A DNA stretch of 64,000 nt from Bacteroidota bacterium (lineage in GTDB: Bacteria; Bacteroidota; Bacteroidia; Bacteroidales; UBA12077), in assembly GCA_020444275.1 (NCBI GenBank), contig JAHLLG010000001.1:583773-647772 (forward strand). Direction: 5' to 3'. The position numbers were made by a program, and so were the translations under genes. Within the stretch, counting starts at the first letter, position 1. Every line of letters starts with the position of its first letter. Below, in pieces: positions 40,393-50,723 of this stretch. The notes under the pieces are model-generated. The model worked only from the letters and a program-made list of their open reading frames with translations, was not told where the DNA came from and searched no databases.

Positions 40393-41607
40393 TTATTCAA
40401 TTCCCATTTCTTCTTTAATGGCTTTTGCCAATCGTTTAACTCCTTCGGTTGTTTTATCTTTAGGCATATACGAGAAGTTAATTCTCATGGTGTTTTTTCC
40501 GCTACCATCGCAGTGGAAAACGCTGCCTAATACAAATGCAACATTATTTTCGATTGCTTTGTGAAATAAGTTTTCGGCATCCATGCCTTCGGGTAAGGTA
40601 AGGAATAAGAATAATCCACCTTCAGGCTCGGTCCATTTTACTCCTTCCGGCATATAATCTCTGAATGCCGTAAGCATATTATCTCTTTTTTCATGATACT
40701 GCTTGATGATTTCTTTTAAGTTTTCATCAAAATATCCTTTTTCAATGTATTTATGGGCAATTTTTTGATTTAATGTTGGAGTACATAAATCCGTTGATTG
40801 TTTTGCAACAACAAATTTATCAACGATTGCCTCGTGGGCAACAACCCAACCAATTCTAAAACCGGGAACGAAAATTTTTGAGAAAGTTCCTAATAAAATT
40901 ACATGGCCGCTTCCATCCAGTTCGAAAATTGTTCGTTGAGCTTTTCCTTCAAAACGTACCTCACGATATGGGCTATCTTCAACAATTAGCACATCGTACT
41001 TTTTAGCAATATCAATAATTTCTAATCTTCGCGACTCTGGCATGGTAATACCTGCAGGGTTCTGAAAATCAGGAATAATATATATGAATTTTGGTTTTAT
41101 CCCTTGAGACTTTAGTTCACCTAGTTTTTCATCTAATAAATCGGCACGCATTCCCTGTTCGTCGAACTTAATACCAATCATTTCGGCACCATACGAATTG
41201 AATGCTCCTAAACCACCTAAGTATGAAGGTAATCCGCAAATAACTTTATCGCCACGGTTAATAAAGATTTTAGCTAATAAATCTAATCCTTGTTGCGAAG
41301 ATGTTGTAATTACCAGGTTTTTCAATTCAATGTTCATCCCTTGAGCATTGTATCGGTCAACCATTAATTGACGTAATTCTGTTACTCCTTCAGTAGCGCC
41401 ATATTGCAACGCAGCTGGACCGTCCTGATCAAGTACCTCACAGGATATTTCTTTAAGTTGTTCAATTGGGAATGATTCAGGTGCTGGTAATCCTCCCGCG
41501 AAAGAAATAATTTCAGGTCGCTGGGTTAGTTTAAGAAGTTCGCGAATTGCAGACTTCTTCATTCCTTTAATATTGGTTGAATAAATTTGTTCTAAATCAC
41601 TTATCAT
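40393..41607 (-). CDS. Class I/II PLP-dependent aminotransferase (2-aminoadipate/aromatic aminotransferase-like)
   Basis: ..ISFAGG.P.PE.FP.....Y....G...LR......Y.IPDFQNP.G......RR..........ED.PY..L.F....GTFSK...PG.R.GW is the fold-type I pattern with the SK Lys. Confidence 0.85.
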   Translation of the reverse strand: MISDLEQIYSTNIKGMKKSAIRELLKLTQRPEIISFAGGLPAPESFPIEQLKEISCEVLDQDGPAALQYGATEGVTELRQLMVDRYNAQGMNIELKNLVITTSSQQGLDLLAKIFINRGDKVICGLPSYLGGLGAFNSYGAEMIGIKFDEQGMRADLLDEKLGELKSQGIKPKFIYIIPDFQNPAGITMPESRRLEIIDIAKKYDVLIVEDSPYREVRFEGKAQRTIFELDGSGHVILLGTFSKIFVPGFRIGWVVAHEAIVDKFVVAKQSTDLCTPTLNQKIAHKYIEKGYFDENLKEIIKQYHEKRDNMLTAFRDYMPEGVKWTEPEGGLFLFLTLPEGMDAENLFHKAIENNVAFVLGSVFHCDGSGKNTMRINFSYMPKDKTTEGVKRLAKAIKEEMGIE

Positions 41608-41811
41608 TATGTTTTTCCTCCTAATTATATTTTGTTTGTACGAAGTTGATGCGAATTTCCGAAAACCATTTTAGATTTACAAGAAAAGCAAGCTGTTGTA
41701 CAATACAATGTTCTGTGTGTATTATATATATTATATATTGAATTGTTGGATGTGATTATATTTTTTTTGTAAATTCAACAAAAATATAGTGGAAGCTTAA
41801 TAGTTTATTAG

Positions 41812-44580
41812 ATGGATCTTTCTAAAAACGATTTTTACTCAGATAGTTTCATGCAATTAATTAGCTCTAATATCTTAAGAGTTATTGATGATAGTATAAT
41901 TGCAACCAATTTAAATGGTAAGATTGTTTACTGGAGTAAAGGTGCGGAAAGAATTTTTGGATATTCTGCAAAGGAAATGTTGGGTAAATCTCCTGTAATA
42001 CTATATCCGGATATGAATGAAGAAATGCTAAAGGTAGATCTGGAAAAAATAATTAATGGAGAAGATTATATAGGAGAGTGGAAGGGAAAAAGAAAAAACG
42101 GGAAAGATGTTTGGATAAGCATTCACACAACAGTAATGAAGAATGCCGAAGGTGAGATTACCGGTTTTATTGGTGTTTCACAAGATATTACTGAAAGAAA
42201 AAGATTGTCAGCTTATCGTGCTGAGCTGGCCAATATCATTGAAAACTCAGATGACGCCATTGAAAGTATGGATTTGGAAGGAAATATTCTAAGTTGGAAT
42301 AGAGCTGCTGAGAAAATTTATGGCTACACTGCAAAGGAAATGATTGGCAAAAATGCAAGTATTTTATACACTAAAACAAGTAAAGATGAGTTAAATGGAA
42401 ATTTGCTAAAAATTAAATCTGGCAAATCGATCAAAAATCTTGAGACTAAACGAAAAAATAAAAACGGAGAAATAATCCATGTTCTAATTAGTTTTTCCCC
42501 ACTGAAAGATGAAAATAACACAATAATAGGAGTATCGGTAATTACACGTGATTTAACTGAACATAAACAAACGGTTAAGGAGCTGCTCGAGAGTGAAATA
42601 AAGTATCAGGCTATATTTGAAAATAGTGGTGAAGGACTATTGTTAATGACAGATTCATTTATAGACTGCAATAAGAGATTATGCGATATGTGGGAGTGCA
42701 CAAAGAAAGATATTATCGGGAAAAACCCAGGAGAATTTTCACCTAAATTTCAAGCAGATGGATTACTATCAGAACAGAAAGCAAAGCAATATATTGAAGA
42801 AGCATACCGAACAGGTTACCAAAGTTTCTACTGGCAACATTTAACCAAAAAAGGGAATAAACTGGAAACTAAAATTACCCTGAGTAGAATTAAGATTAAA
42901 GGGGATCAGCACCTTATTGCGGTTGTACAAGATTTAACAGAAATGTTTAAATATCAGAATAAGCTAAAAACTAAATCAAAAGAGTTACTCGAACACAACG
43001 AAGAAATAAACCAACTTAACGATGAACTCAATGAAAGTAATCTTCGATTAAAAATAATTAACAAACAAATCGATTTAAGCGAAAAAAAATTTAGAGCGGC
43101 TTTTAAAACAAGCCCCGATGCCATAAATATAAATCGCTTAAATGATGGGGCATATATAGAAATTAACAGTGGTTTTACTAAAATGACAGGATTTACCGAT
43201 GAAGATGTTCTTCATAAAAATCCGTATACAATTAATATTTGGTACAATGATAAGGATCGAGAACGGTTAATTAACGATCTAAAAAAGAAGAAGGAACTTA
43301 CTAATTACGAAATAAATTATAAGACCAAAAACGGTGATGTAAAGACCGGTCTTTTATCTGCAAGTATTATAGAAATAGATGGTGTTGAACATTATATTTC
43401 TATAACCCGGGATATTTCAGAACGTAAGGAGTACGAAGAAAAACTTAAAGAAGCCCGAAAAAAGGCTGAAGAAAGCGACATGTTAAAATCAGCTTTTTTA
43501 GCAAATATGTCGCATGAGATCAGAACTCCGATGAATGCTATTCTGGGATTTGGACAATTGCTTAGAGAAAAAAAACTTGATAGAGAAAAGCAAAATAAAT
43601 TTTTAGATATCATTGTGGTTCGTTCAAAAAACTTATTGCAAATTATAAATGATATTATCGATATTTCAAAGATAGAGGCAAACCAGCTAAATCTTGAGAT
43701 ACGGCAGTTTTCATTAAACAAGGTTTTATACGAACTTTTCTCAAGCTTTGAAGCCGAGCTGGCAGCTCAAAATAAAGAAGGATTAAAGTTAGAATTTAAA
43801 GCTGAGTTGGATAGGGATGCCAGTCATATTGAATCCGATGAGGTTCGGCTAAAGCAAATCCTAACTAATTTAATTAGTAATGCCATAAAATTTACAGAAA
43901 AAGGCAAAATAGAGTTTGGTTATAAGGTAGAAAAAGAAGTGCTTCACTTCTTTGTTCAAGATACCGGAATTGGGATTCCCCAAAGTGCAATGAAACATAT
44001 ATTCGAAAGGTTTAGACAGGCTGATGATTCGAACACAAGACAGTTTGGAGGAACCGGTCTTGGATTATCTATAAGCAAACAATTGGTTCAAATGATGGGA
44101 GGTGAAATTTGGGTTGAATCAGAGGAAAATAAAGGATCGGTATTTCATTTTACGATACCATTTAATCCGGTTAACAAGAACTTAGAAACAGAAAAGATGA
44201 AACAAGAAGAGCTTGATCTTTCTAAAAAGTGTTTTATGTTGGTTGAAGATGACACCATTAGTATGGCTTATCTTGAAGAGATCTTACAACCTACAAAAGT
44301 AAAAATTATAAAAGCTTTTGATGGTGAGCAGGCCGTTGAAAAATTCAGAACCGAAGAAGTTGATCTAATATTAATGGATATCCATTTGCCCAAAATGAGC
44401 GGAAATACGGCTACTAAGGAGATAAGAAAAATAGATAAATCAATACCTATTATAGCTCAATCAGCTTTTGCAATGCCTGGTGATAAAAAAGAAAGCTTTG
44501 AACATGGTTGTGATGAATATATAACAAAACCTATAGACAGCAGGCTACTATTTTCAACAATTAAAAAACTCTTAATTTAA
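41812..44580 (+). CDS. Hybrid sensor histidine kinase/response regulator with four PAS domains
   Basis: Four PAS-like units (..IVYWSKGAERIFGYSAKEMLGKS.., ..ILSWNRAAEKIYGYTAKEMIGKN.., ..CNKRLCDMWECTKKDIIGKN.., ..INSGFTKMTGFTDEDVL..). H-box FLANMSHEIRTPMNAI, N/G boxes (..NAIKFT.., DTGIGI, GGTGLGL). C-terminal REC (LVEDD, LILMDIHLP, ITKPI). Confidence 0.9.
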   Translation: MDLSKNDFYSDSFMQLISSNILRVIDDSIIATNLNGKIVYWSKGAERIFGYSAKEMLGKSPVILYPDMNEEMLKVDLEKIINGEDYIGEWKGKRKNGKDVWISIHTTVMKNAEGEITGFIGVSQDITERKRLSAYRAELANIIENSDDAIESMDLEGNILSWNRAAEKIYGYTAKEMIGKNASILYTKTSKDELNGNLLKIKSGKSIKNLETKRKNKNGEIIHVLISFSPLKDENNTIIGVSVITRDLTEHKQTVKELLESEIKYQAIFENSGEGLLLMTDSFIDCNKRLCDMWECTKKDIIGKNPGEFSPKFQADGLLSEQKAKQYIEEAYRTGYQSFYWQHLTKKGNKLETKITLSRIKIKGDQHLIAVVQDLTEMFKYQNKLKTKSKELLEHNEEINQLNDELNESNLRLKIINKQIDLSEKKFRAAFKTSPDAININRLNDGAYIEINSGFTKMTGFTDEDVLHKNPYTINIWYNDKDRERLINDLKKKKELTNYEINYKTKNGDVKTGLLSASIIEIDGVEHYISITRDISERKEYEEKLKEARKKAEESDMLKSAFLANMSHEIRTPMNAILGFGQLLREKKLDREKQNKFLDIIVVRSKNLLQIINDIIDISKIEANQLNLEIRQFSLNKVLYELFSSFEAELAAQNKEGLKLEFKAELDRDASHIESDEVRLKQILTNLISNAIKFTEKGKIEFGYKVEKEVLHFFVQDTGIGIPQSAMKHIFERFRQADDSNTRQFGGTGLGLSISKQLVQMMGGEIWVESEENKGSVFHFTIPFNPVNKNLETEKMKQEELDLSKKCFMLVEDDTISMAYLEEILQPTKVKIIKAFDGEQAVEKFRTEEVDLILMDIHLPKMSGNTATKEIRKIDKSIPIIAQSAFAMPGDKKESFEHGCDEYITKPIDSRLLFSTIKKLLI

Positions 44581-44667
44581 TCAATGCAAAACAATTGCTT
44601 ATCAAATAACTATGTTTTGTAAATAAAAAAAACTTACCTTTAATAAAATTCATAAAGCAATACATTA

Positions 44668-45636
44668 ATGAGAAAAATCTTATTAATTGAATCTAACAAA
44701 CAATTACTTGATAAAACGATAAAATTTTTAACGGATAATAATTACAATGTAATTGTTACAACAGAGGGTACCGCCGGAATACAAAAGGCATTAGAGTTTT
44801 TACCTGATCTTATCTTATGTGATTCAGAGGTTCCCGGATTAAACGGGTATGAGATTTTTAATACATTACTTCAAATTAATTCAACTGCAATTATTCCTTT
44901 TGTTTTTCTTCTAAATCAAGCAACAAATGAGGATGTTCGGGCAGCTATGAACCTTGGTGCCGACGATTATCTTGAAATACCTTTTAATAATAATGACTTG
45001 TTAAAACTAATTGAAATTCGATTAGAAAAGCAAGAGAAAATTATGAGCCTGGCCGATGAGAAATTCAACACGCTAATGGAGCACTCTAGCGATGGAGTAT
45101 TTATATATCAGGATGAAAAACTTTCATATGTGAATAAAAAGTTTTGCGATTTAATGTCGTATTCAAAAAGAGAACTTATAGGTATGAATCTGGTTAATAT
45201 TATTTACAAAGATGATATTCATCTGGTAATTGATAAAATCAGCAGGCTTCAAAAGGGAATTCATAAAGATTTTCAATCTAACTTTAGAGCAATAACCGGA
45301 GATCAGAAAATTAGTAATTTTATACTTTCAGGTAACAGTATAAATGTAAATGGTAAGAAAAGTATTGTTGGTACGATAAAACTGCAGGAAGAAAATACTA
45401 ATCAAGGCTTTGTTCCAAAAGAATGTGATATAAAAATTACCGAACGTGAGTCAGAAGTGCTAGAACTTATATGTCTCGGATATTCCAATTCGGAAATTGC
45501 CAAGGAACTTAATATCAGCGATAGAACAGTAGAAGGACACAGAGCGAATTTACTCAATAAAACCGGATCCAGAAACACTGCAAGCTTGGCTATCTTCGCA
45601 GTAAAATATGGTTTTTTTCAAATAAAAGATGAATAA
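44668..45636 (+). CDS. REC-PAS-LuxR(GerE HTH) transcriptional regulator with a degenerate receiver
   Basis: REC-like N-terminus (DLILCDSEVPGLNG), a central PAS-like unit (..YVNKKFCDLMSYSKRELIGMN..). C-terminus LTERESEVLELICLGYSNSEIAKELNISDRTVEGHRANLLNKTG is a LuxR/FixJ HTH. Confidence 0.85.
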   Translation: MRKILLIESNKQLLDKTIKFLTDNNYNVIVTTEGTAGIQKALEFLPDLILCDSEVPGLNGYEIFNTLLQINSTAIIPFVFLLNQATNEDVRAAMNLGADDYLEIPFNNNDLLKLIEIRLEKQEKIMSLADEKFNTLMEHSSDGVFIYQDEKLSYVNKKFCDLMSYSKRELIGMNLVNIIYKDDIHLVIDKISRLQKGIHKDFQSNFRAITGDQKISNFILSGNSINVNGKKSIVGTIKLQEENTNQGFVPKECDIKITERESEVLELICLGYSNSEIAKELNISDRTVEGHRANLLNKTGSRNTASLAIFAVKYGFFQIKDE

Positions 45637-45640
45637 ATAC

Positions 45641-45652
45641 ACGTATTTATAC
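45641..45652 (+). promoter_or_regulatory. Conserved 12-mer ACGTATTTATAC, copy 1 (embedded in the palindrome ATAAATA-CACG-TATTTAT)
   Basis: Exact 12-mer. Starts 5 nt after the stop of the LuxR-type regulator gene. Confidence 0.35.
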
Positions 45653-45748
45653 GTACTCGCATGCAGGATTTACATAAATTGTTCATTAATAATTAATCTT
45701 AATAGCTGTTAATCAGATTTATAAACAACTGGTTTTAATTCCACACAT

Positions 45749-45760
45749 ACGTATTTATAC
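45749..45760 (+). promoter_or_regulatory. Conserved 12-mer ACGTATTTATAC, copy 2
   Basis: Exact 12-mer ending 83 nt upstream of the ATG at 45843. Confidence 0.35.
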
Positions 45761-45811
45761 CTATTTTAATATTTAGGTATTAATCCTGTACCTAGAATTT
45801 TCTAAGATAAA

Positions 45812-45819
45812 TATCTTTG
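45812..45819 (+). promoter_or_regulatory. Candidate -7 box TATCTTTG
   Basis: Matches TAnnTTTG, 24 nt upstream of the ATG at 45843. Motif match only. Confidence 0.3.
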
Positions 45820-45842
45820 AATACAGTAGAATGTAAGATAAG

Positions 45843-46232
45843 ATGAAAAGGAAAATACTAATCATAGATGAACTATCACCTTATACATACTTTATAAAAA
45901 GAGTATTAAGCAATGAAGGTTACGAGGTAGGTGTTGCTGAAATATTACCAGATCATTTGCACGAATTAGATCAGAACAGAGTTGATTTAATTTTATTGGA
46001 TATTAAGATTGATAACGGACAGGGATTAAACTACCTCAAACAAATTTCACAAAATATTAATCTCGATATACCGGTAATCGTAATTTCAGATAGTAAAAAT
46101 TTAACTGAAATAGAAAATGCATTTAAGAGTGGAGCTTATGATTATTTAATAAAACCTATTAATTTAAGAGATATGAAAAATAAAATAGAGCATGCATTTA
46201 AAAGTAAATATATCAAAAAGGCAAGATCTTAA
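45843..46232 (+). CDS. Stand-alone receiver (CheY-like) protein
   Basis: 129 aa, REC only: IIDE, DLILLDIKI, VIVISD, YLIKPI. Confidence 0.85.
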   Translation: MKRKILIIDELSPYTYFIKRVLSNEGYEVGVAEILPDHLHELDQNRVDLILLDIKIDNGQGLNYLKQISQNINLDIPVIVISDSKNLTEIENAFKSGAYDYLIKPINLRDMKNKIEHAFKSKYIKKARS

Positions 46233-46251
46233 TTGTAATAATTCTCAATAG

Positions 46252-46701
46252 ATGAAAAAAAATACCTACCTGACATATAAAATTGAAAAGTGGTTATTTG
46301 CATCAAACTCAAAAGAAGTTCGACGTATTTTGGATATTAAATATTTAGAATCGTTAAAAAAACATCAAGGTAACAGAAGTTATGAGGCTGAAATAATTGA
46401 AAAAATTAAACTTATCAAAAACATTGACCATGCAAAAACTGAAGATGGCAAAAATAATTGTTTATTGATTTTAGAATCTAAAGGATTAGTGAATCAGCAG
46501 GTTGGAGTTGCTGTTACTAAAGTAAATAAATTAATTGATGAGGATGAATTGACATATATTGAGAAACCTCAAATTGGGATATTATATGATGATTATTTCG
46601 TAGAAAAATATGCTATGTTAGATAACGAAATAATTGGCATAATAGATGTAAATAGAATTGTTAATAAAAACATCCAATGTAAGCGGAGGACGCAACTATA
46701 A
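46252..46701 (+). CDS. Divergent CheW-like domain protein
   Basis: YLTYKIEKWLFASNSKEVRRILD.. / ..CLLILESKG..QQVGVAVTKVNKLIDEDELTYIEKP.. / ..IIGIIDVNRIVN aligns by eye to the CheW blocks [21 protein letters not shown] / [25 protein letters not shown]....I.P.P / LILVNIEKLLN. The central RG.i.PvvDL block is not conserved. Confidence 0.4.
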   Translation: MKKNTYLTYKIEKWLFASNSKEVRRILDIKYLESLKKHQGNRSYEAEIIEKIKLIKNIDHAKTEDGKNNCLLILESKGLVNQQVGVAVTKVNKLIDEDELTYIEKPQIGILYDDYFVEKYAMLDNEIIGIIDVNRIVNKNIQCKRRTQL

Positions 46702-46807
46702 ACAAAAATTACAGAATAATTATTTAATCAAATATGTGGTTAAAAATAATTATGAGTAAAGAAAAAATTATATATTTAGCGGAAGAGCAGATGTTTAAAT
46801 ATTAAGT

Positions 46808-47191
46808 ATGGATGAAAAGGCACATATAAACTGGAGTGAAAAAAGAATATTAGTAGTTGAAGATGATCTTTTTAGTGCAGAATATTTGGTAGAAGTATTA
46901 TCGGACACCAAAGTCGATGTTGTTTTAACAAAAGATGGCAGTGATGCGGTACAAAAAGTTAAAAACGAGAAATTCGATTTAGTATTAATGGATATACAAT
47001 TACCTGGTATTAGCGGCGACAAAGCTACACAGTTGATACGAGAGTTTAATCAATCCATACCAATTATTGCTCAAACAGCTCATGCCATGTCAAATGATCG
47101 GGAAAAGTATTTAAAAGCCGGATGTAATGATTACCTGGCAAAACCTATATTAATAACCGACCTTTTAATGATATTAAAAAAATATCTTTAG
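46808..47191 (+). CDS. Stand-alone receiver (CheY-like) protein, closest to the kinase's own REC domain
   Basis: ILVVEDD, DLVLMDIQLPGISG, IPIIAQTAHAM, DYLAKPI. Collinear with the hybrid kinase C-terminus (LVEDD..LILMDIHLPKMSG..IPIIAQSAFAM..EYITKPI). Confidence 0.85.
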   Translation: MDEKAHINWSEKRILVVEDDLFSAEYLVEVLSDTKVDVVLTKDGSDAVQKVKNEKFDLVLMDIQLPGISGDKATQLIREFNQSIPIIAQTAHAMSNDREKYLKAGCNDYLAKPILITDLLMILKKYL

Positions 47192-47340
47192 ATACTCTAC
47201 AACTTCTAAAGTGTTGACCTATGTTAAATTATTTGTTAGTATAATTTATAGCAAATTAATTCTTTCAAAAAAAATAACTACCTTCGTAAGTATAAAAAAG
47301 TTAAACCAAGTTTAGCTTATTTATTAGTTTGTTGTTGTTT

Positions 47341-47368
47341 AAGGAGGTCGTTAGGCCTCCTTTTTTTT
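47341..47368 (+). terminator. Strong Rho-independent terminator with no CDS directly upstream (orphan)
   Basis: AAGGAGGUC-GUUA-GGCCUCCUU, a 9-bp stem including one U.G pair, followed by U8. The nearest upstream stop codon is 150 nt away (47191). Confidence 0.6.
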
Positions 47369-47375
47369 ATAAATC

Positions 47376-47387
47376 ACGTATTTATAC
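47376..47387 (+). promoter_or_regulatory. Conserved 12-mer ACGTATTTATAC, copy 3 (within TATAAAT-CACGT-ATTTATA)
   Basis: Exact 12-mer ending 85 nt upstream of the ATG at 47472. An A10 run follows. Confidence 0.35.
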
Positions 47388-47471
47388 TTAAAAAAAAAAG
47401 AATAAAAATTTGTTTATTTGTTTCGATGATAGTTAAATTGATGTAAACAGGTATTAAATATAAAGCTATTT

Positions 47472-47855
47472 ATGGCTACACATGGTAAAATTCTTATTGT
47501 TGATGATATCTCAACACATTTATTGCTTCTTCAAACAATTTTACACGACGAGGGCTATCAAACTAAAATAACTGATGATTCTAAACGTGTTGTTGATATT
47601 TTATTAAAAGAAGAATTTCAGGTTGTGCTATTGGATATTATGATGCCGGGACTAGATGGTATACAGGTTCTGGAGAAGATTAAATCAAACGAAAAGCTCT
47701 CCTCAATTAATGTTATTGTAATTTCTGCTAAAACCGATTCATGGAGTATAAAAAATGCCATGGATAAAGGGGCATTTGATTATATTACGAAACCGATAAA
47801 TATTCAAGATGTACGGAATAAAGTAAAATCCGCTATGATTGAATCAATATTATAG
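47472..47855 (+). CDS. Stand-alone receiver (CheY-like) protein
   Basis: ILIVDD, VVLLDIMMPGLDG, VIVISA, YITKPI. Confidence 0.85.
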   Translation: MATHGKILIVDDISTHLLLLQTILHDEGYQTKITDDSKRVVDILLKEEFQVVLLDIMMPGLDGIQVLEKIKSNEKLSSINVIVISAKTDSWSIKNAMDKGAFDYITKPINIQDVRNKVKSAMIESIL

Positions 47856-47991
47856 TGTAATTTTGGGATTAGGAATTCATGAAAAGAATTAGGGGTTTAG
47901 GCACTAGATCTCTGATTTTTTTTGATTTTAATCCTTTTTTTATAATTTGGAAATTAACAATTAAAACTAGTATTAAGCAAAACTTAAACGT

Positions 47992-49218
47992 ATGAAAAGA
48001 TTTACATTTTTATTCATTCTGATTTTTTTAATGCCCTATTTTATCACAGCTCAGGATCAGCCGGAAAAACTTAGTGTTAATTTTAGTGGATATGTAGGTT
48101 ATAGTTTTTACTTCGACACCTATGAATCTGCTACAACTCGAGATGGACTGGTTTATTTATATCCATTGGCCGAAAATCTAGATGCAAATAACGATGATTT
48201 AAATAAAAACTTTCAGTCACAGATGTTGTCTGTTGAATCCAGAGCAAGATTAACTGCATCTGGCATATCAGCATTTGGAGCCAAATCAAAAGCCGTAATA
48301 GAAGGTGATTTTCTTGGAACAGGTCAACCTTCTACCAGATTGTTCAGACTTAGGCATGCTTTTGCGCAATTAGATTGGGAAAATTCACAATTAATTGTAG
48401 GTCAAACATGGCACCCACTATTTGTTACCGGATGTTTTCCCGGAGTTTTTTCATTTGGAGCAGGAGCTCCTTTTAATCCGCTAAACCGAGCACCACAAAT
48501 TAGATTTACATATAATCCAACTGCTAATTTGGATCTTATGGGAGCATTACTAATGCATGGTGATTTTAAAAGCTCAGGACCAGCCAATGCATTGCAAAAT
48601 TCGGGATTACCCGATATGCAGTTTCAATTCCGTTTTCACAATGATTTAGTATATACAGGATTTACTGCCGGATACAAAGTTTTACAACCCAGAACAGTAA
48701 CTGATAATGGAATTAAAACAGACGAAACCATCGGAAGTTATAATTTTCAAGCATTTGCAAAATTTACCACAAATCCGGTAATTGTAAAAGTACAGGGAAT
48801 TTATGGAGAAAATTTATCACACCTTGTTATGATTGGTGGTTATGGCGCTGATATGGGCGATATAGTTGCTGCAGAAGATGATTATTCATATGTTAATCTT
48901 AAAACATTCTCAATGTGGAGTGAGGTTGCAACTAATTTTAAAAAGCTAAACGGAGCTGTTTTCTTTGGTTATTCGCAGAATCTGGGTGCATCTGATGATT
49001 ATGTGTCGTTAGGATATGCCCGTGGTGAGAACTTACATAGTATCACAAGAATTTCGCCACGTGTGCAGTATACTTCAGGTAAATTAACTTTCATATTAGA
49101 ACATATGATGACAACTGCCATTTATGGCGAAACATTTGATACCAAACAGAAAGCTGACACAAAGGCTGATCCAACCATAAATCATCGTATCCAGCTTGGA
49201 GCTAAATATGCTTTTTAA
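47992..49218 (+). CDS. Putative outer-membrane beta-barrel porin
   Basis: Signal peptide MKRFTFLFILIFLMPYFITAQ, alternating amphipathic beta-strand pattern, C-terminal ..LGAKYAF (aromatic terminal residue). Confidence 0.5.
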   Translation: MKRFTFLFILIFLMPYFITAQDQPEKLSVNFSGYVGYSFYFDTYESATTRDGLVYLYPLAENLDANNDDLNKNFQSQMLSVESRARLTASGISAFGAKSKAVIEGDFLGTGQPSTRLFRLRHAFAQLDWENSQLIVGQTWHPLFVTGCFPGVFSFGAGAPFNPLNRAPQIRFTYNPTANLDLMGALLMHGDFKSSGPANALQNSGLPDMQFQFRFHNDLVYTGFTAGYKVLQPRTVTDNGIKTDETIGSYNFQAFAKFTTNPVIVKVQGIYGENLSHLVMIGGYGADMGDIVAAEDDYSYVNLKTFSMWSEVATNFKKLNGAVFFGYSQNLGASDDYVSLGYARGENLHSITRISPRVQYTSGKLTFILEHMMTTAIYGETFDTKQKADTKADPTINHRIQLGAKYAF

Positions 49219-49245
49219 TGAAACACAATAAATATTAAAGTAGAA

Positions 49246-49275
49246 AAAGGAGAGTTTTGCTCTCCTTTTATATTT
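49246..49275. terminator. Hairpin terminator between convergent genes
   Basis: AAAGGAGAG-UUUUG-CUCUCCUUU followed by U-rich sequence. Confidence 0.55.
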
Positions 49276-49288
49276 TGAATGAAATAGT

Positions 49289-50035
49289 TTATTGATTTTT
49301 TAACTTGATACAATGTGTAATAACCATTCTACAAGCATTTGTATTACCTAATTCACATGCTTTGTGAAAATCATCACATGCTTCTGCATCTTTAACTTGT
49401 TTTAGATGTATCATCCCACGATTGTAATATGCAAAAGGATTTTCAGGATCGATCTCTATAACAATGTTAAAATCTCTTAAAGCTTCTTCATATTCGTTGG
49501 TTTTATAAAACAAATAACCTCGGTAAAGAAAAACATTTGGATTATTGTCGTTAAGCTGAATAGCCTTTGAATAATCACTTAAAGCAGCATCGTATTTTAA
49601 TAATTTCTGATAAGCTGCTCCTCTGTTAACATAAATTTTATTTTCCAGGAGTTTGTCGTTCGAACCTTTCGATAAATCAAGTGCCCTGTTTAAATCATCA
49701 ATGGCATCTTCGTATTTATCCTTATGAATAAGTATTTTCCCACGAGTAAGATAAAAATGAGGATAATCAGAGTTCTTTTTTATAGCATCATCAATTAGTT
49801 TCCCGGCAGCTTTATAATCTTCGAGCATAATTAGTAAATTGGCCTTACCGTCAATGGCTGGTGCGTATGACGGCAAATAATCTAAAGCTTCGTTGTATTT
49901 TTCAAGAGCTTCTTCAAACCGTTTGAGTTTTACCAGATCTTCGGCTATGCCAGTTATTGATCCCACATCGGCTTGCGCATGTCCGGTGAAATTCAGAGTA
50001 ACTATGAAAGAAAGTATTAGAAGAAGATGCTTCAT
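49289..50035 (-). CDS. TPR repeat protein (secreted)
   Basis: Signal peptide from the internal Met (MKHLLLILSFIVTLNFTGHAQ; ORF extends to 50119). Six or more TPR-like 34-aa units (..A...Y..A..L.P.....Y..RG..). Confidence 0.75.
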   Translation of the reverse strand: MKHLLLILSFIVTLNFTGHAQADVGSITGIAEDLVKLKRFEEALEKYNEALDYLPSYAPAIDGKANLLIMLEDYKAAGKLIDDAIKKNSDYPHFYLTRGKILIHKDKYEDAIDDLNRALDLSKGSNDKLLENKIYVNRGAAYQKLLKYDAALSDYSKAIQLNDNNPNVFLYRGYLFYKTNEYEEALRDFNIVIEIDPENPFAYYNRGMIHLKQVKDAEACDDFHKACELGNTNACRMVITHCIKLKNQ

Positions 50036-50102
50036 TTTGCAGAATTTTATCTTTACATGCTTTATGTGGTGAAAATAATAAATATTTTTCAAATATGTAA
50101 GC

Positions 50103-50723
50103 TTATATCGAAGATTCAAACAAAGTTCTGTTTACGATTGATCTTCCCAGTGTAATTTCGTCGGCATATTCTAACTCATCGCCAATAGCTACTCCACGAG
50201 CTAATGTAGTTATTTTAATGTCGTGTTGTTTAAATTTTTTATAGATATAAAAATTGGTTGTGTCACCTTCCATGGTAGTACTTAGAGCTAATATAAGTTC
50301 TTTTGCTTCGCCGTTTTCAATTTTTTTCTGTAGAGAATCTATTTTTAAATCATTAGGACCTATTCCATCCATAGGAGAAATAATTCCGCCAAGCACATGG
50401 TAAATGCCATTAAACTGGTGCGTGTTTTCAATAGACATTACGTCGCGTGCATTTTCAACCACGCATATTAAAGAATGATCGCGCGATTGATTACTACAAA
50501 TATTGCATATGTCCGTGTCGGATATGGTATTGCAACTTTTGCAATGTTTTATCTCATTGCGCAACTTTATAATGGTTTCCCCAAAATGATTCACATCTTC
50601 TTTATCCTGGTTAAGCAAATGTAGAACTAATCGTAGCGCGGTTTTACGTCCAATTCCCGGAAGTTTGGCAAACTCATCAACAGCACTTTCTAATAGTTTA
50701 GATGTAAAACTTTGTATATTCAT
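50103..50723 (-). CDS. recR: Recombination protein RecR
   Basis: ..L..LPGIG.KTA.RL..HLL......C..C........C.IC....RD....CVVE...D....E....F.G.YHVLGG..SP..GIGP is the canonical RecR HhH / Zn finger / Toprim pattern. Confidence 0.95.

Follow-up and report, generated by a model that had tools for sequence, protein, structure and literature searches.

A divergent CheW-like protein, apparently rewired to a classical hybrid kinase, in an uncultured Bacteroidales genus

The signalling island analysed here lies in the window, a stretch of 64,000 nucleotides (positions 583,773 to 647,772 of contig JAHLLG010000001.1, assembly GCA_020444275.1; C7:583773-647772 in the labels used below) from a 4.22-Mb assembly, 98.9% complete, of an uncultured genus of Bacteroidales. 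The island comprises six plus-strand open reading frames (ORFs), which encode a hybrid kinase (HK), a REC-PAS-LuxR regulator (RPL), three single receivers (REC1, REC2 and REC3) and, between the first two receivers, a CheW-like protein (CheWl); a porin-like gene follows. Our overall verdict is that CheWl is a divergent CheW, similar to FrzB and CheV, which appears to have been rewired to this classical hybrid kinase. The presence of CheWl follows the kinase, not CheA or the chemoreceptors (methyl-accepting chemotaxis proteins, MCPs), which are widespread in the genus. The original prediction, made from the sequence of the window alone, had proposed a non-canonical use of a CheW fold with the kinase. 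This proposal gained ground in that CheWl is real, strictly co-occurs with the kinase and is lost together with it, but its premise of an organism without CheA and MCPs was wrong. The reading that we tentatively prefer, at slightly less than an even chance, sees the cluster as a network in which a PAS hybrid kinase serves several receiver branches and RPL provides the transcriptional wiring; REC1 and CheWl would form an orphan pair that acts as a kinase-dependent accessory and no longer couples to CheA.

In the labels, G000 is the genome of the window, other G numbers are congener genomes, L numbers are loci or contigs and C denotes a contig. In gene orders, AT stands for the aminotransferase gene and GT for the GT gene flank.

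The CheW fold of CheWl and its beta4-beta5 hairpin

A CheW-family match for the product of 46252-46701 was looked for and found. CheWl scored 24.9 bits with the Pfam CheW profile (PF01584; cut-off 23.5), and the match covers profile positions 2-135 of 138. With the CheW profile it lies ~100 bits below the three canonical CheWs of the genome. No NCBIfam match was obtained, and a six-frame search of the genome with CheW hidden Markov models (HMMs) at E<=0.001 did not recover CheWl. An AlphaFold2 (AF2) model was produced with a pLDDT of 72.7; its best 18 Foldseek matches in the Protein Data Bank (PDB) were all CheW or CheA-P5, with probability 1.0 and a template-modelling score of ~0.5. Moreover, the CheWl profile matched PDB CheWs at 1e-15 to 1e-22. 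Judged largely from the predicted model, CheWl is a real CheW fold, marginal by sequence and firm by structure. Residues F16, A17, S18, R24, D28 and P106 are invariant in its subfamily.

The most divergent part of CheWl stands where canonical CheWs have the beta4-beta5 hairpin, GVINLRGxVLPVIDL (G57-L71 in E. coli; general form GVxNLRGxxxPVxDL, with Arg62 in E. coli). In the alignments CheWl reads NRSYEAEIIEKIKLIKNID at this place, which is rich in Lys and Glu, and in the AF2 model residues 39-65 have a pLDDT <50, contain no strands and are modelled as disordered. Within the window clade, the segment that replaces the hairpin shows an identity of 6-23% and a dN/dS of 0.72-1.18, and the rest of the protein (the core) a dN/dS of 0.14-0.25, all rough values; with the other pairs compared, the range of the core is 0.11-0.25. 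By these rates the core of CheWl is under purifying selection, and the former CheA-P5 contact hairpin drifts as a neutral linker, in the window clade only.

A known case of hairpin loss is FrzB of M. xanthus, in which the absence of beta4-beta5 abolishes binding to the CheA FrzE; grafting both strands restores CheW function (PMC6952110, PLoS Genet 2019). CheWl is likewise a small CheW-fold protein of a gliding, non-flagellated bacterium that has no functional beta4-beta5 and has canonical CheW(s) alongside. However, FrzB carries a clean 20-aa deletion, whereas the CheWl segment keeps its length and has decayed. FrzB is encoded in the frz che operon with MCP and CheA, whereas the neighbours of CheWl are a HisKA-type hybrid kinase and receivers, without an MCP or CheA close by, and sequence kinship between the two does not extend beyond the CheW family. 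A second comparison can be drawn with CheV, the CheW-REC fusion of Bacillus, Helicobacter and Campylobacter. The common feature would be the pairing of a CheW module with a receiver that can be phosphorylated: the REC1 and CheWl genes show translational coupling, have accelerated together and come from a REC-CheW pair beside an MCP. CheV differs in being a single chain, CheW then REC, whereas REC1 and CheWl are separate ORFs, REC then CheW. The likely phosphodonor of the pair is the PAS kinase instead of CheA, and the locus has no MCP.

Origin of the cluster and co-occurrence with the kinase

Conservation of the cluster in relatives was looked for and found. Its gene order recurs in 3 further congener species and in 5 metagenome/Logan contigs, and it is therefore not a chance grouping. 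An RPL orthologue is present in 15 of the 37 species of the genus. The contigs with the two closest CheWl relatives read RPL-REC1-CheWl-REC2-REC3-porin (L062/L063) and HK919-RPL-REC1-CheWl-REC2 (L064). In sister species, the same site, flanked by GT and AT, holds HK-RPL-REC-CheW-MCP. The fullest order is that of L060 (genome G031), GT-AT|HK985-RPL-REC131-CheW167-MCP684-HK447-REC133. L039 and L040 have HK-RPL-REC-CheW-MCP, with an MCP of the 4HB-CZB-HAMP-MCPsignal type, and L041 has GT-AT-RPL-CheW-MCP; in L038, RPL-REC-CheW-MCP is placed after a che operon. In these ancestral-like loci CheW is canonical, and its gene and that of the receiver before it share 4 nt. The Bacteroidales locus is also carried, with protein identities of 66-85%, by the contigs L035 (JASFYV010000234.1, 'Candidatus Marithrix') and L044 (JBKHIH010000017.1, 'Thiohalospira'), which come from bins labelled Gammaproteobacteria, probably through a binning error.

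In the receiver tree, the sister group of REC1 (98/88) is formed by the receivers encoded ahead of canonical CheW in L060 and L039. REC2 falls together with REC133 of L060, and its sister is the receiver of the kinase itself (98/92). From the position of REC1 and from the receiver and CheWl trees it therefore follows that REC1-CheWl descend from a REC-CheW pair that lost its MCP. Judged by gene order and phylogeny, the island is a former HK-RPL-REC-CheW-MCP cluster minus the MCP. The clade in which CheWl diverged is precisely the one that lost the local MCP.

The CheWl subfamily is monophyletic (92/89) and rooted among canonical Bacteroidales CheWs, with branches 5-10 times longer. It is also small. 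An exhaustive HMMER search with CheWl against 1.84 billion representatives gave 8 proteins at E<=0.001; 6 of them form the subfamily with CheWl and 2 are canonical CheWs. A word-indexed homologue search returned CheWl itself as its sole match, and an alignment of 3 CheWl sequences gave no match in the genome contigs, so that the loci of relatives were found with an RPL alignment instead. An uninterrupted frame is present in 10 or more distinct sequences, with identities down to 24%, and in relatives the REC1 and CheWl genes overlap by 4-8 nt, as expected of translational coupling. Four low-scoring CheW-like ORFs in congeners (G023:C148:5664-6140, G031:C7:340524-340976, G026:C55:87774-88223 and G015:C9:925850-926302) scored 38-56 bits when searched with the profile of the subfamily, far less than canonical CheWs, and other divergent CheW lineages may exist.

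No gene of the locus evolves faster than that of CheWl, and REC1 has accelerated with it. Between the window and L028, dN rises from 0.07 for AT through 0.10 (REC3), 0.15 (RPL) and 0.19 (REC2) to 0.47 for REC1 and 0.74 for CheWl; the amino-acid identities, in the same order, are 91%, 85%, 78%, 72%, 48% and 27%. The evolution of the pair is put at 5-10 times the rate of the neighbouring genes. As dS between species is mostly saturated, dN ratios and the least diverged pairs were relied on; the near-identical strain contig L055 (99% nucleotide identity) has too few differences for dN/dS.

Among the 37 genomes, the subfamily HMM exceeded the plateau of canonical CheWs (<=101 bits) in four: G000 (189 bits), G024 (219), G029 (202) and G015 (127). 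Full-length orthologues of the kinase were found in precisely these four genomes. In a tree of AT and RPL, the full cluster is ancestral within the derived clade; L036 and L037 form one branch, and L028 and the window are in the other, with the window as sister (100/98) to L029/L030. On this tree the kinase and CheWl were jointly lost at least 2 times. L029/L030 keep RPL-REC1-REC2-REC3-porin without either gene, through two separate deletions, and L031, L033 and L035 are a second set of loci, reduced to RPL-REC3-porin. In L029/L030, the phospho-accepting Asp of REC1 has been replaced by Glu, a change found only in these loci without kinase and CheWl and which followed their loss. There the dN/dS of REC1 is relaxed to 0.23, versus 0.04-0.06 for its neighbours. 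Strict co-occurrence and joint loss support the view that CheWl is functionally tied to the kinase.

Proposed working and rival explanations

The original prediction also set out from the absence of CheA, MCP and Hpt. This holds for the window, as all matches in the genome lie outside it, but the genome has all three. A che operon, STAS-CheY-CheA-CheW-MCP-CheR-HATPase-CheD-CheB, is found at C7:1180129-1189054, and there are two more CheW-MCP pairs; in all the genome has 3 canonical CheWs and 5 MCPs, and the CheA and MCP genes are ~550 kb from the island and on another contig. A lineage wholly without chemotaxis genes was therefore rejected. The canonical operon includes a CheW and a CheY of its own and is not by itself an explanation for the genes of the island. 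GldM is present (388 bits), FlhA was not found in the genome, and the che system presumably has a target other than flagella. The idea that the lack of an Hpt is special to this kinase was also considered. A rough census gave ~89 kinase cores, ~116 receiver ORFs, 33 hybrid kinases and 3 Hpt matches, and since ~32 of the 33 hybrid kinases have no Hpt, this idea was dropped. The sole stand-alone Hpt has 118 aa and the motif AHKAKS, and is encoded on G000:C9.

The kinase joins HisKA, HATPase_c and receiver in one chain, as in hybrid kinase phosphorelays, and Pfam detected no Hpt domain in it. The system resembles phosphorelays with Hpt in trans and receiver sinks (LuxQ/LuxU, the CheY-type sinks of Sinorhizobium, CckA/ChpT): the HisKA-HATPase-REC kinase has no Hpt of its own, a small Hpt is encoded separately in the genome, and the several stand-alone receivers include a paralogue of the kinase receiver. 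In contrast to these, the Hpt here is unlinked and probably shared by ~30 hybrid kinases, the unit includes a CheW-fold protein, and the receiver of the output regulator is degenerate. The branched phosphorelay or sink network that had been proposed thus fits insofar as there are several canonical stand-alone receivers, but not in its premise that CheA, MCP and Hpt are missing from the organism.

Under the preferred reading, the ancestor would have had a PAS hybrid kinase, RPL, a translationally coupled REC-CheW pair and an MCP. In the window clade the MCP would have been lost, with a kinase of four PAS domains upstream, and REC1-CheWl would have survived as an accessory pair dependent on the kinase. 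The soluble kinase may sense a cytoplasmic cue and phosphorylate its own receiver, as well as REC1 and REC2, directly or through the stand-alone Hpt of the genome; REC2, as a paralogue of the kinase receiver, would be a likely competitor or sink. Without the hairpin that docks on P5, CheWl would not be a CheA coupler and may instead serve REC1 and/or the kinase as an adaptor, in the manner of a CheV that has been split and permuted. RPL would bind the cluster-specific 7-2-7 palindromes described below and set the transcription of REC1-CheWl-REC2 and of REC3 (possibly also of the porin-like gene), which would give feedback. We infer these phosphorylation partners, binding partners and contacts of RPL with the palindromes. 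That the CheW fold works wholly outside chemoreceptor arrays, as a scaffold which came to join the HisKA-type PAS kinase to REC1 soon after the loss of the MCP, is a further claim that we regard as doubtful.

Several points weigh against this reading. The co-occurrence of CheWl and kinase reflects few independent events (~2-3 loss lineages), though all go in the same direction, and the survey of kinase orthologues scored 24 candidates per genome. The dN/dS values are rough, with dS near saturation (~1-1.4 in the window clade), and the disorder modelled by AF2 for residues 39-65 could partly be due to a shallow alignment. In other CheWl clades (L028, L036/L037) the hairpin persists in modified form, ININGxEIP (ININGxEIPxxxI), without the Arg, and loss of the CheA contact may hold for the clade of the window only. 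The degenerate receiver of RPL speaks against simple phosphotransfer from the kinase to RPL, as judged from its residues. Finally, CheWl could still bind MCP tips. The receptor-contact residues of E. coli CheW, which we take to be V36, I39, V87/88, V105, V108, I33, E38 and R62, have equivalents in CheWl that are still hydrophobic at the first five of these positions according to the alignments.

The last point bears on a rival which we consider possible, although on the unlikely side. In it CheWl is a modulator of chemoreceptor arrays akin to FrzB, binding the tips of the five MCPs and not CheA, and REC1 and CheWl, as a split CheV, alter the packing or coupling of the canonical array. The kinase would phosphorylate REC1, and through the island a cytoplasmic signal would reach the che system, which presumably directs gliding, a coupling that we likewise rate as somewhat improbable. 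FrzB, which has no beta4-beta5, exerts its effect on the receptor and fails to bind FrzE (PMC6952110); together with the hydrophobic contact positions, this makes such a role conceivable for CheWl. It is also in keeping with the retention of CheA, three CheWs and five MCPs in the genome, with GldM and no detected FlhA, and with an ancestral REC-CheW pair that adjoined an MCP. However, that MCP was lost exactly where CheWl diverged, and the presence of CheWl tracks the kinase instead of the genus-wide CheA and MCPs. Moreover, the equivalent of I33 is Ser and that of R62 is lost or Asn throughout the subfamily; the equivalent of E38 is Arg or Asn.

A plain branched phosphorelay or phosphate sink, in which receivers alone shape the output of the kinase and CheWl is a decaying relic without a role, appears improbable. 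Three canonical stand-alone receivers, one paralogous to the kinase receiver, would suit such a network, as would a CheWl that is the fastest-evolving gene, marginal in Pfam and deleted in sister lineages. Nevertheless a relic is unlikely because frames are intact in the ten or more divergent sequences and the core is under purifying selection; its subfamily-specific invariant residues, its translational coupling to REC1 and the coupling of its loss to that of the kinase point the same way. Still more remote, and in our judgement very unlikely, is the case that CheWl is an ordinary fourth CheW paralogue linking MCPs to the single CheA in canonical arrays, with its kinase neighbourhood incidental. 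The CheW fold, the Pfam match and a canonical che operon elsewhere on the same contig are compatible with it. An ordinary CheW is nonetheless unlikely because the hairpin with its NLRG motif has decayed and evolves neutrally, and it would be at odds with a profile score far below that of the canonical CheWs, with the failure of the six-frame search to recover CheWl and with conserved synteny and co-loss with the kinase.

To our knowledge, CheW domains are thought to serve solely as the link between chemoreceptors and CheA. FrzB showed that a CheW can take on a new role once a single hairpin is lost, and the genus studied here offers a natural series, from canonical REC-CheW-MCP through an MCP-less CheW with a modified hairpin and one with a decayed hairpin to deletion of the gene. 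The fate of this CheW derivative follows a classical hybrid kinase, not CheA. If the link to the kinase is physical, the CheW fold would extend to ordinary two-component signalling, and the island would be a tractable case of adaptor re-use after partner loss; if the scaffold role is true, CheWl would be the first CheW-domain adaptor in a two-component pathway without CheA. The locus also bears on the role of che systems in gliding, non-flagellated Bacteroidota.

Genes, transcription units and wider genome context

The features of the island are collected in Table 1. The ORF map agreed exactly with the six same-strand genes and coordinates originally given, Pfam with their domain calls (hybrid kinase with receiver, REC-PAS-LuxR, three receivers and CheW-like), and the gap of 19 nt between the REC1 stop and the CheWl start was correct.

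Table 1. Coordinates of the genes and other features of the signalling island (positions in the window)
Feature	Position	Strand	Description and basis
Divergent intergenic region between AT gene (minus strand) and HK gene	41608..41811	.	Presumed HK-RPL promoter region; ORF map and sequence
HK	41812..44580	+	922 aa, cytoplasmic; 4 PAS, HisKA aa 559-623, HATPase_c 676-785, receiver 809-917; Pfam
RPL	44668..45636	+	REC-PAS-GerE(LuxR) transcription factor, degenerate receiver; Pfam, orthologue alignment
Palindrome copy 1	45641..45652	+	7-2-7 (cACGTAT-TT-ATACGTa); 5 nt past RPL stop
Palindrome copy 2	45749..45760	+	Candidate RPL operator; 94 nt upstream of REC1 start
Bacteroidetes-type -7 box	45812..45819	+	TAnnTTTG (TATCTTTG); 31 nt upstream of REC1 ATG
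REC1	45843..46232	+	Single-domain canonical receiver, fast-evolving, CheWl partner; Pfam Response_reg
CheWl	46252..46701	+	Degenerate CheW-fold protein, 149 aa; Pfam CheW PF01584, AF2 and Foldseek
CheWl segment in place of beta4-beta5 hairpin	46357..46455	+	aa 36-68; alignments, AF2, within-clade rates
REC2	46808..47191	+	Canonical single receiver; Pfam; paralogue of HK's own receiver, 46% identity
Intrinsic terminator	47341..47370	+	9-bp stem, 5 G-C pairs, T8; closes REC1-CheWl-REC2 unit
Palindrome copy 3	47376..47387	+	96 nt upstream of REC3 start
REC3	47472..47855	+	Canonical single receiver, best conserved of three; Pfam; 85-96% identity
Porin-like outer-membrane protein	47992..49218	+	Signal peptide, ~16-18 predicted beta strands, C-terminal Phe

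NCBIfam recognizes four sensory_box domains in the kinase. The maximal Kyte-Doolittle value over 19 residues is 1.09, so no transmembrane segment is present, and without a hydrophobic segment the kinase is therefore cytoplasmic. Its H-box (SHEIRTPMN) is normal and its receiver residues (DD/D/S/K) are canonical; a LOV-type NCRFL motif was not visible on inspection of the PAS domains. The full canonical residue set is also present in all three single receivers, with REC1 carrying D/D-E, D, S and K. REC3 is retained even in the minimal RPL-REC3-porin loci.

Of the canonical residues, the receiver of RPL retains the phospho-accepting Asp; E-S takes the place of the acidic pair, Leu occupies the Thr/Ser position and Ile stands where Lys is conserved. 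In the orthologue alignment, the Lys is kept in ancestral-like loci and is I, L or M in the window clade and in L037. In one locus without the kinase, L033:10001-10963 (G008), the phospho-accepting Asp of RPL has changed to Asn (IILCNSD). The GerE domain matches PF00196 at 57 bits; in NCBIfam, NarL and FixJ come out best, with scores under the equivalog cut-offs.

The 12-mer ACGTATTTATAC has three exact copies in the 4.22-Mb genome versus ~1.9 expected, and all three lie inside this cluster. Relatives have CAGGTATTTATACCTG-like sites at conserved positions, and in the ancestral-like loci L060, L039 and L040 CAGGTATTT(A/T)TAC(C/G)T is found at the same place upstream of REC-CheW-MCP. As a GerE-type regulator, RPL is the obvious candidate binder and is likely to recognize the palindrome. 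The arrangement is like that of NarL/FixJ regulators on 7-2-7 inverted heptamers, in that a regulator with a GerE-type helix-turn-helix lies beside 7-2-7 palindromes upstream of targets. RPL differs from them in its inserted PAS domain and atypical receiver (one acidic residue, no Thr/Ser and, in the clade, no Lys), and its binding is a prediction.

A scan for sigma-70 promoters yielded 35 matches where 39 were expected, so they are not enriched, and as the sigma-70 model is not applicable to Bacteroidota, the TAnnTTTG box was used instead. Two intergenic matches occur in 41500-49300: the REC1 box and, at 47858, the porin gene's own box. A scan for TAnnTTTG found no -7 box in 41608..41811. In the spacer between REC2 and REC3 (47192-47471, 280 nt), the terminator is directly followed by palindrome copy 3 and an A10 run, and there is no ORF; Rfam gave no match in 41500-49400, including this spacer. 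From these elements the transcription units are likely HK-RPL, REC1-CheWl-REC2, REC3 and porin.

The porin-like gene, which had been placed next to the island, is always syntenic with RPL-REC3. The call is supported by the signal peptide, the predicted all-beta structure and the C-terminal Phe, but Pfam and NCBIfam give no family. Its AF2 model (pLDDT 43) is too poor for a fold search. Downstream, on the minus strand, the TPR ORF at 49289-50119 has 276 aa from a TTG start and is called with 248 aa in L055; the longer TTG start overlaps the end of the recR gene and is probably wrong.

Elsewhere in the genome, the che operon with an upstream 599-aa protein of no assigned family spans G000:C7:1178309-1189054 (L023); its MCP is a Cache-MCP and its HATPase protein has 305 aa. 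The Hpt gene (G000:C9, L059:6396-6752, minus strand) is directly followed by a gene for a 112-aa STAS-domain protein, both together spanning L059:6028-6752, and lies beside clpB; the che operon also starts with STAS. At G000:C7:1196564-1205366 (L058), with the che operon on one side and a CheW-MCP pair on the other, a second RPL paralogue with 51% identity was found right after a giant PAS hybrid kinase of ~2600 aa, and RPL-type regulators seem to be repeatedly che-linked in the genus.

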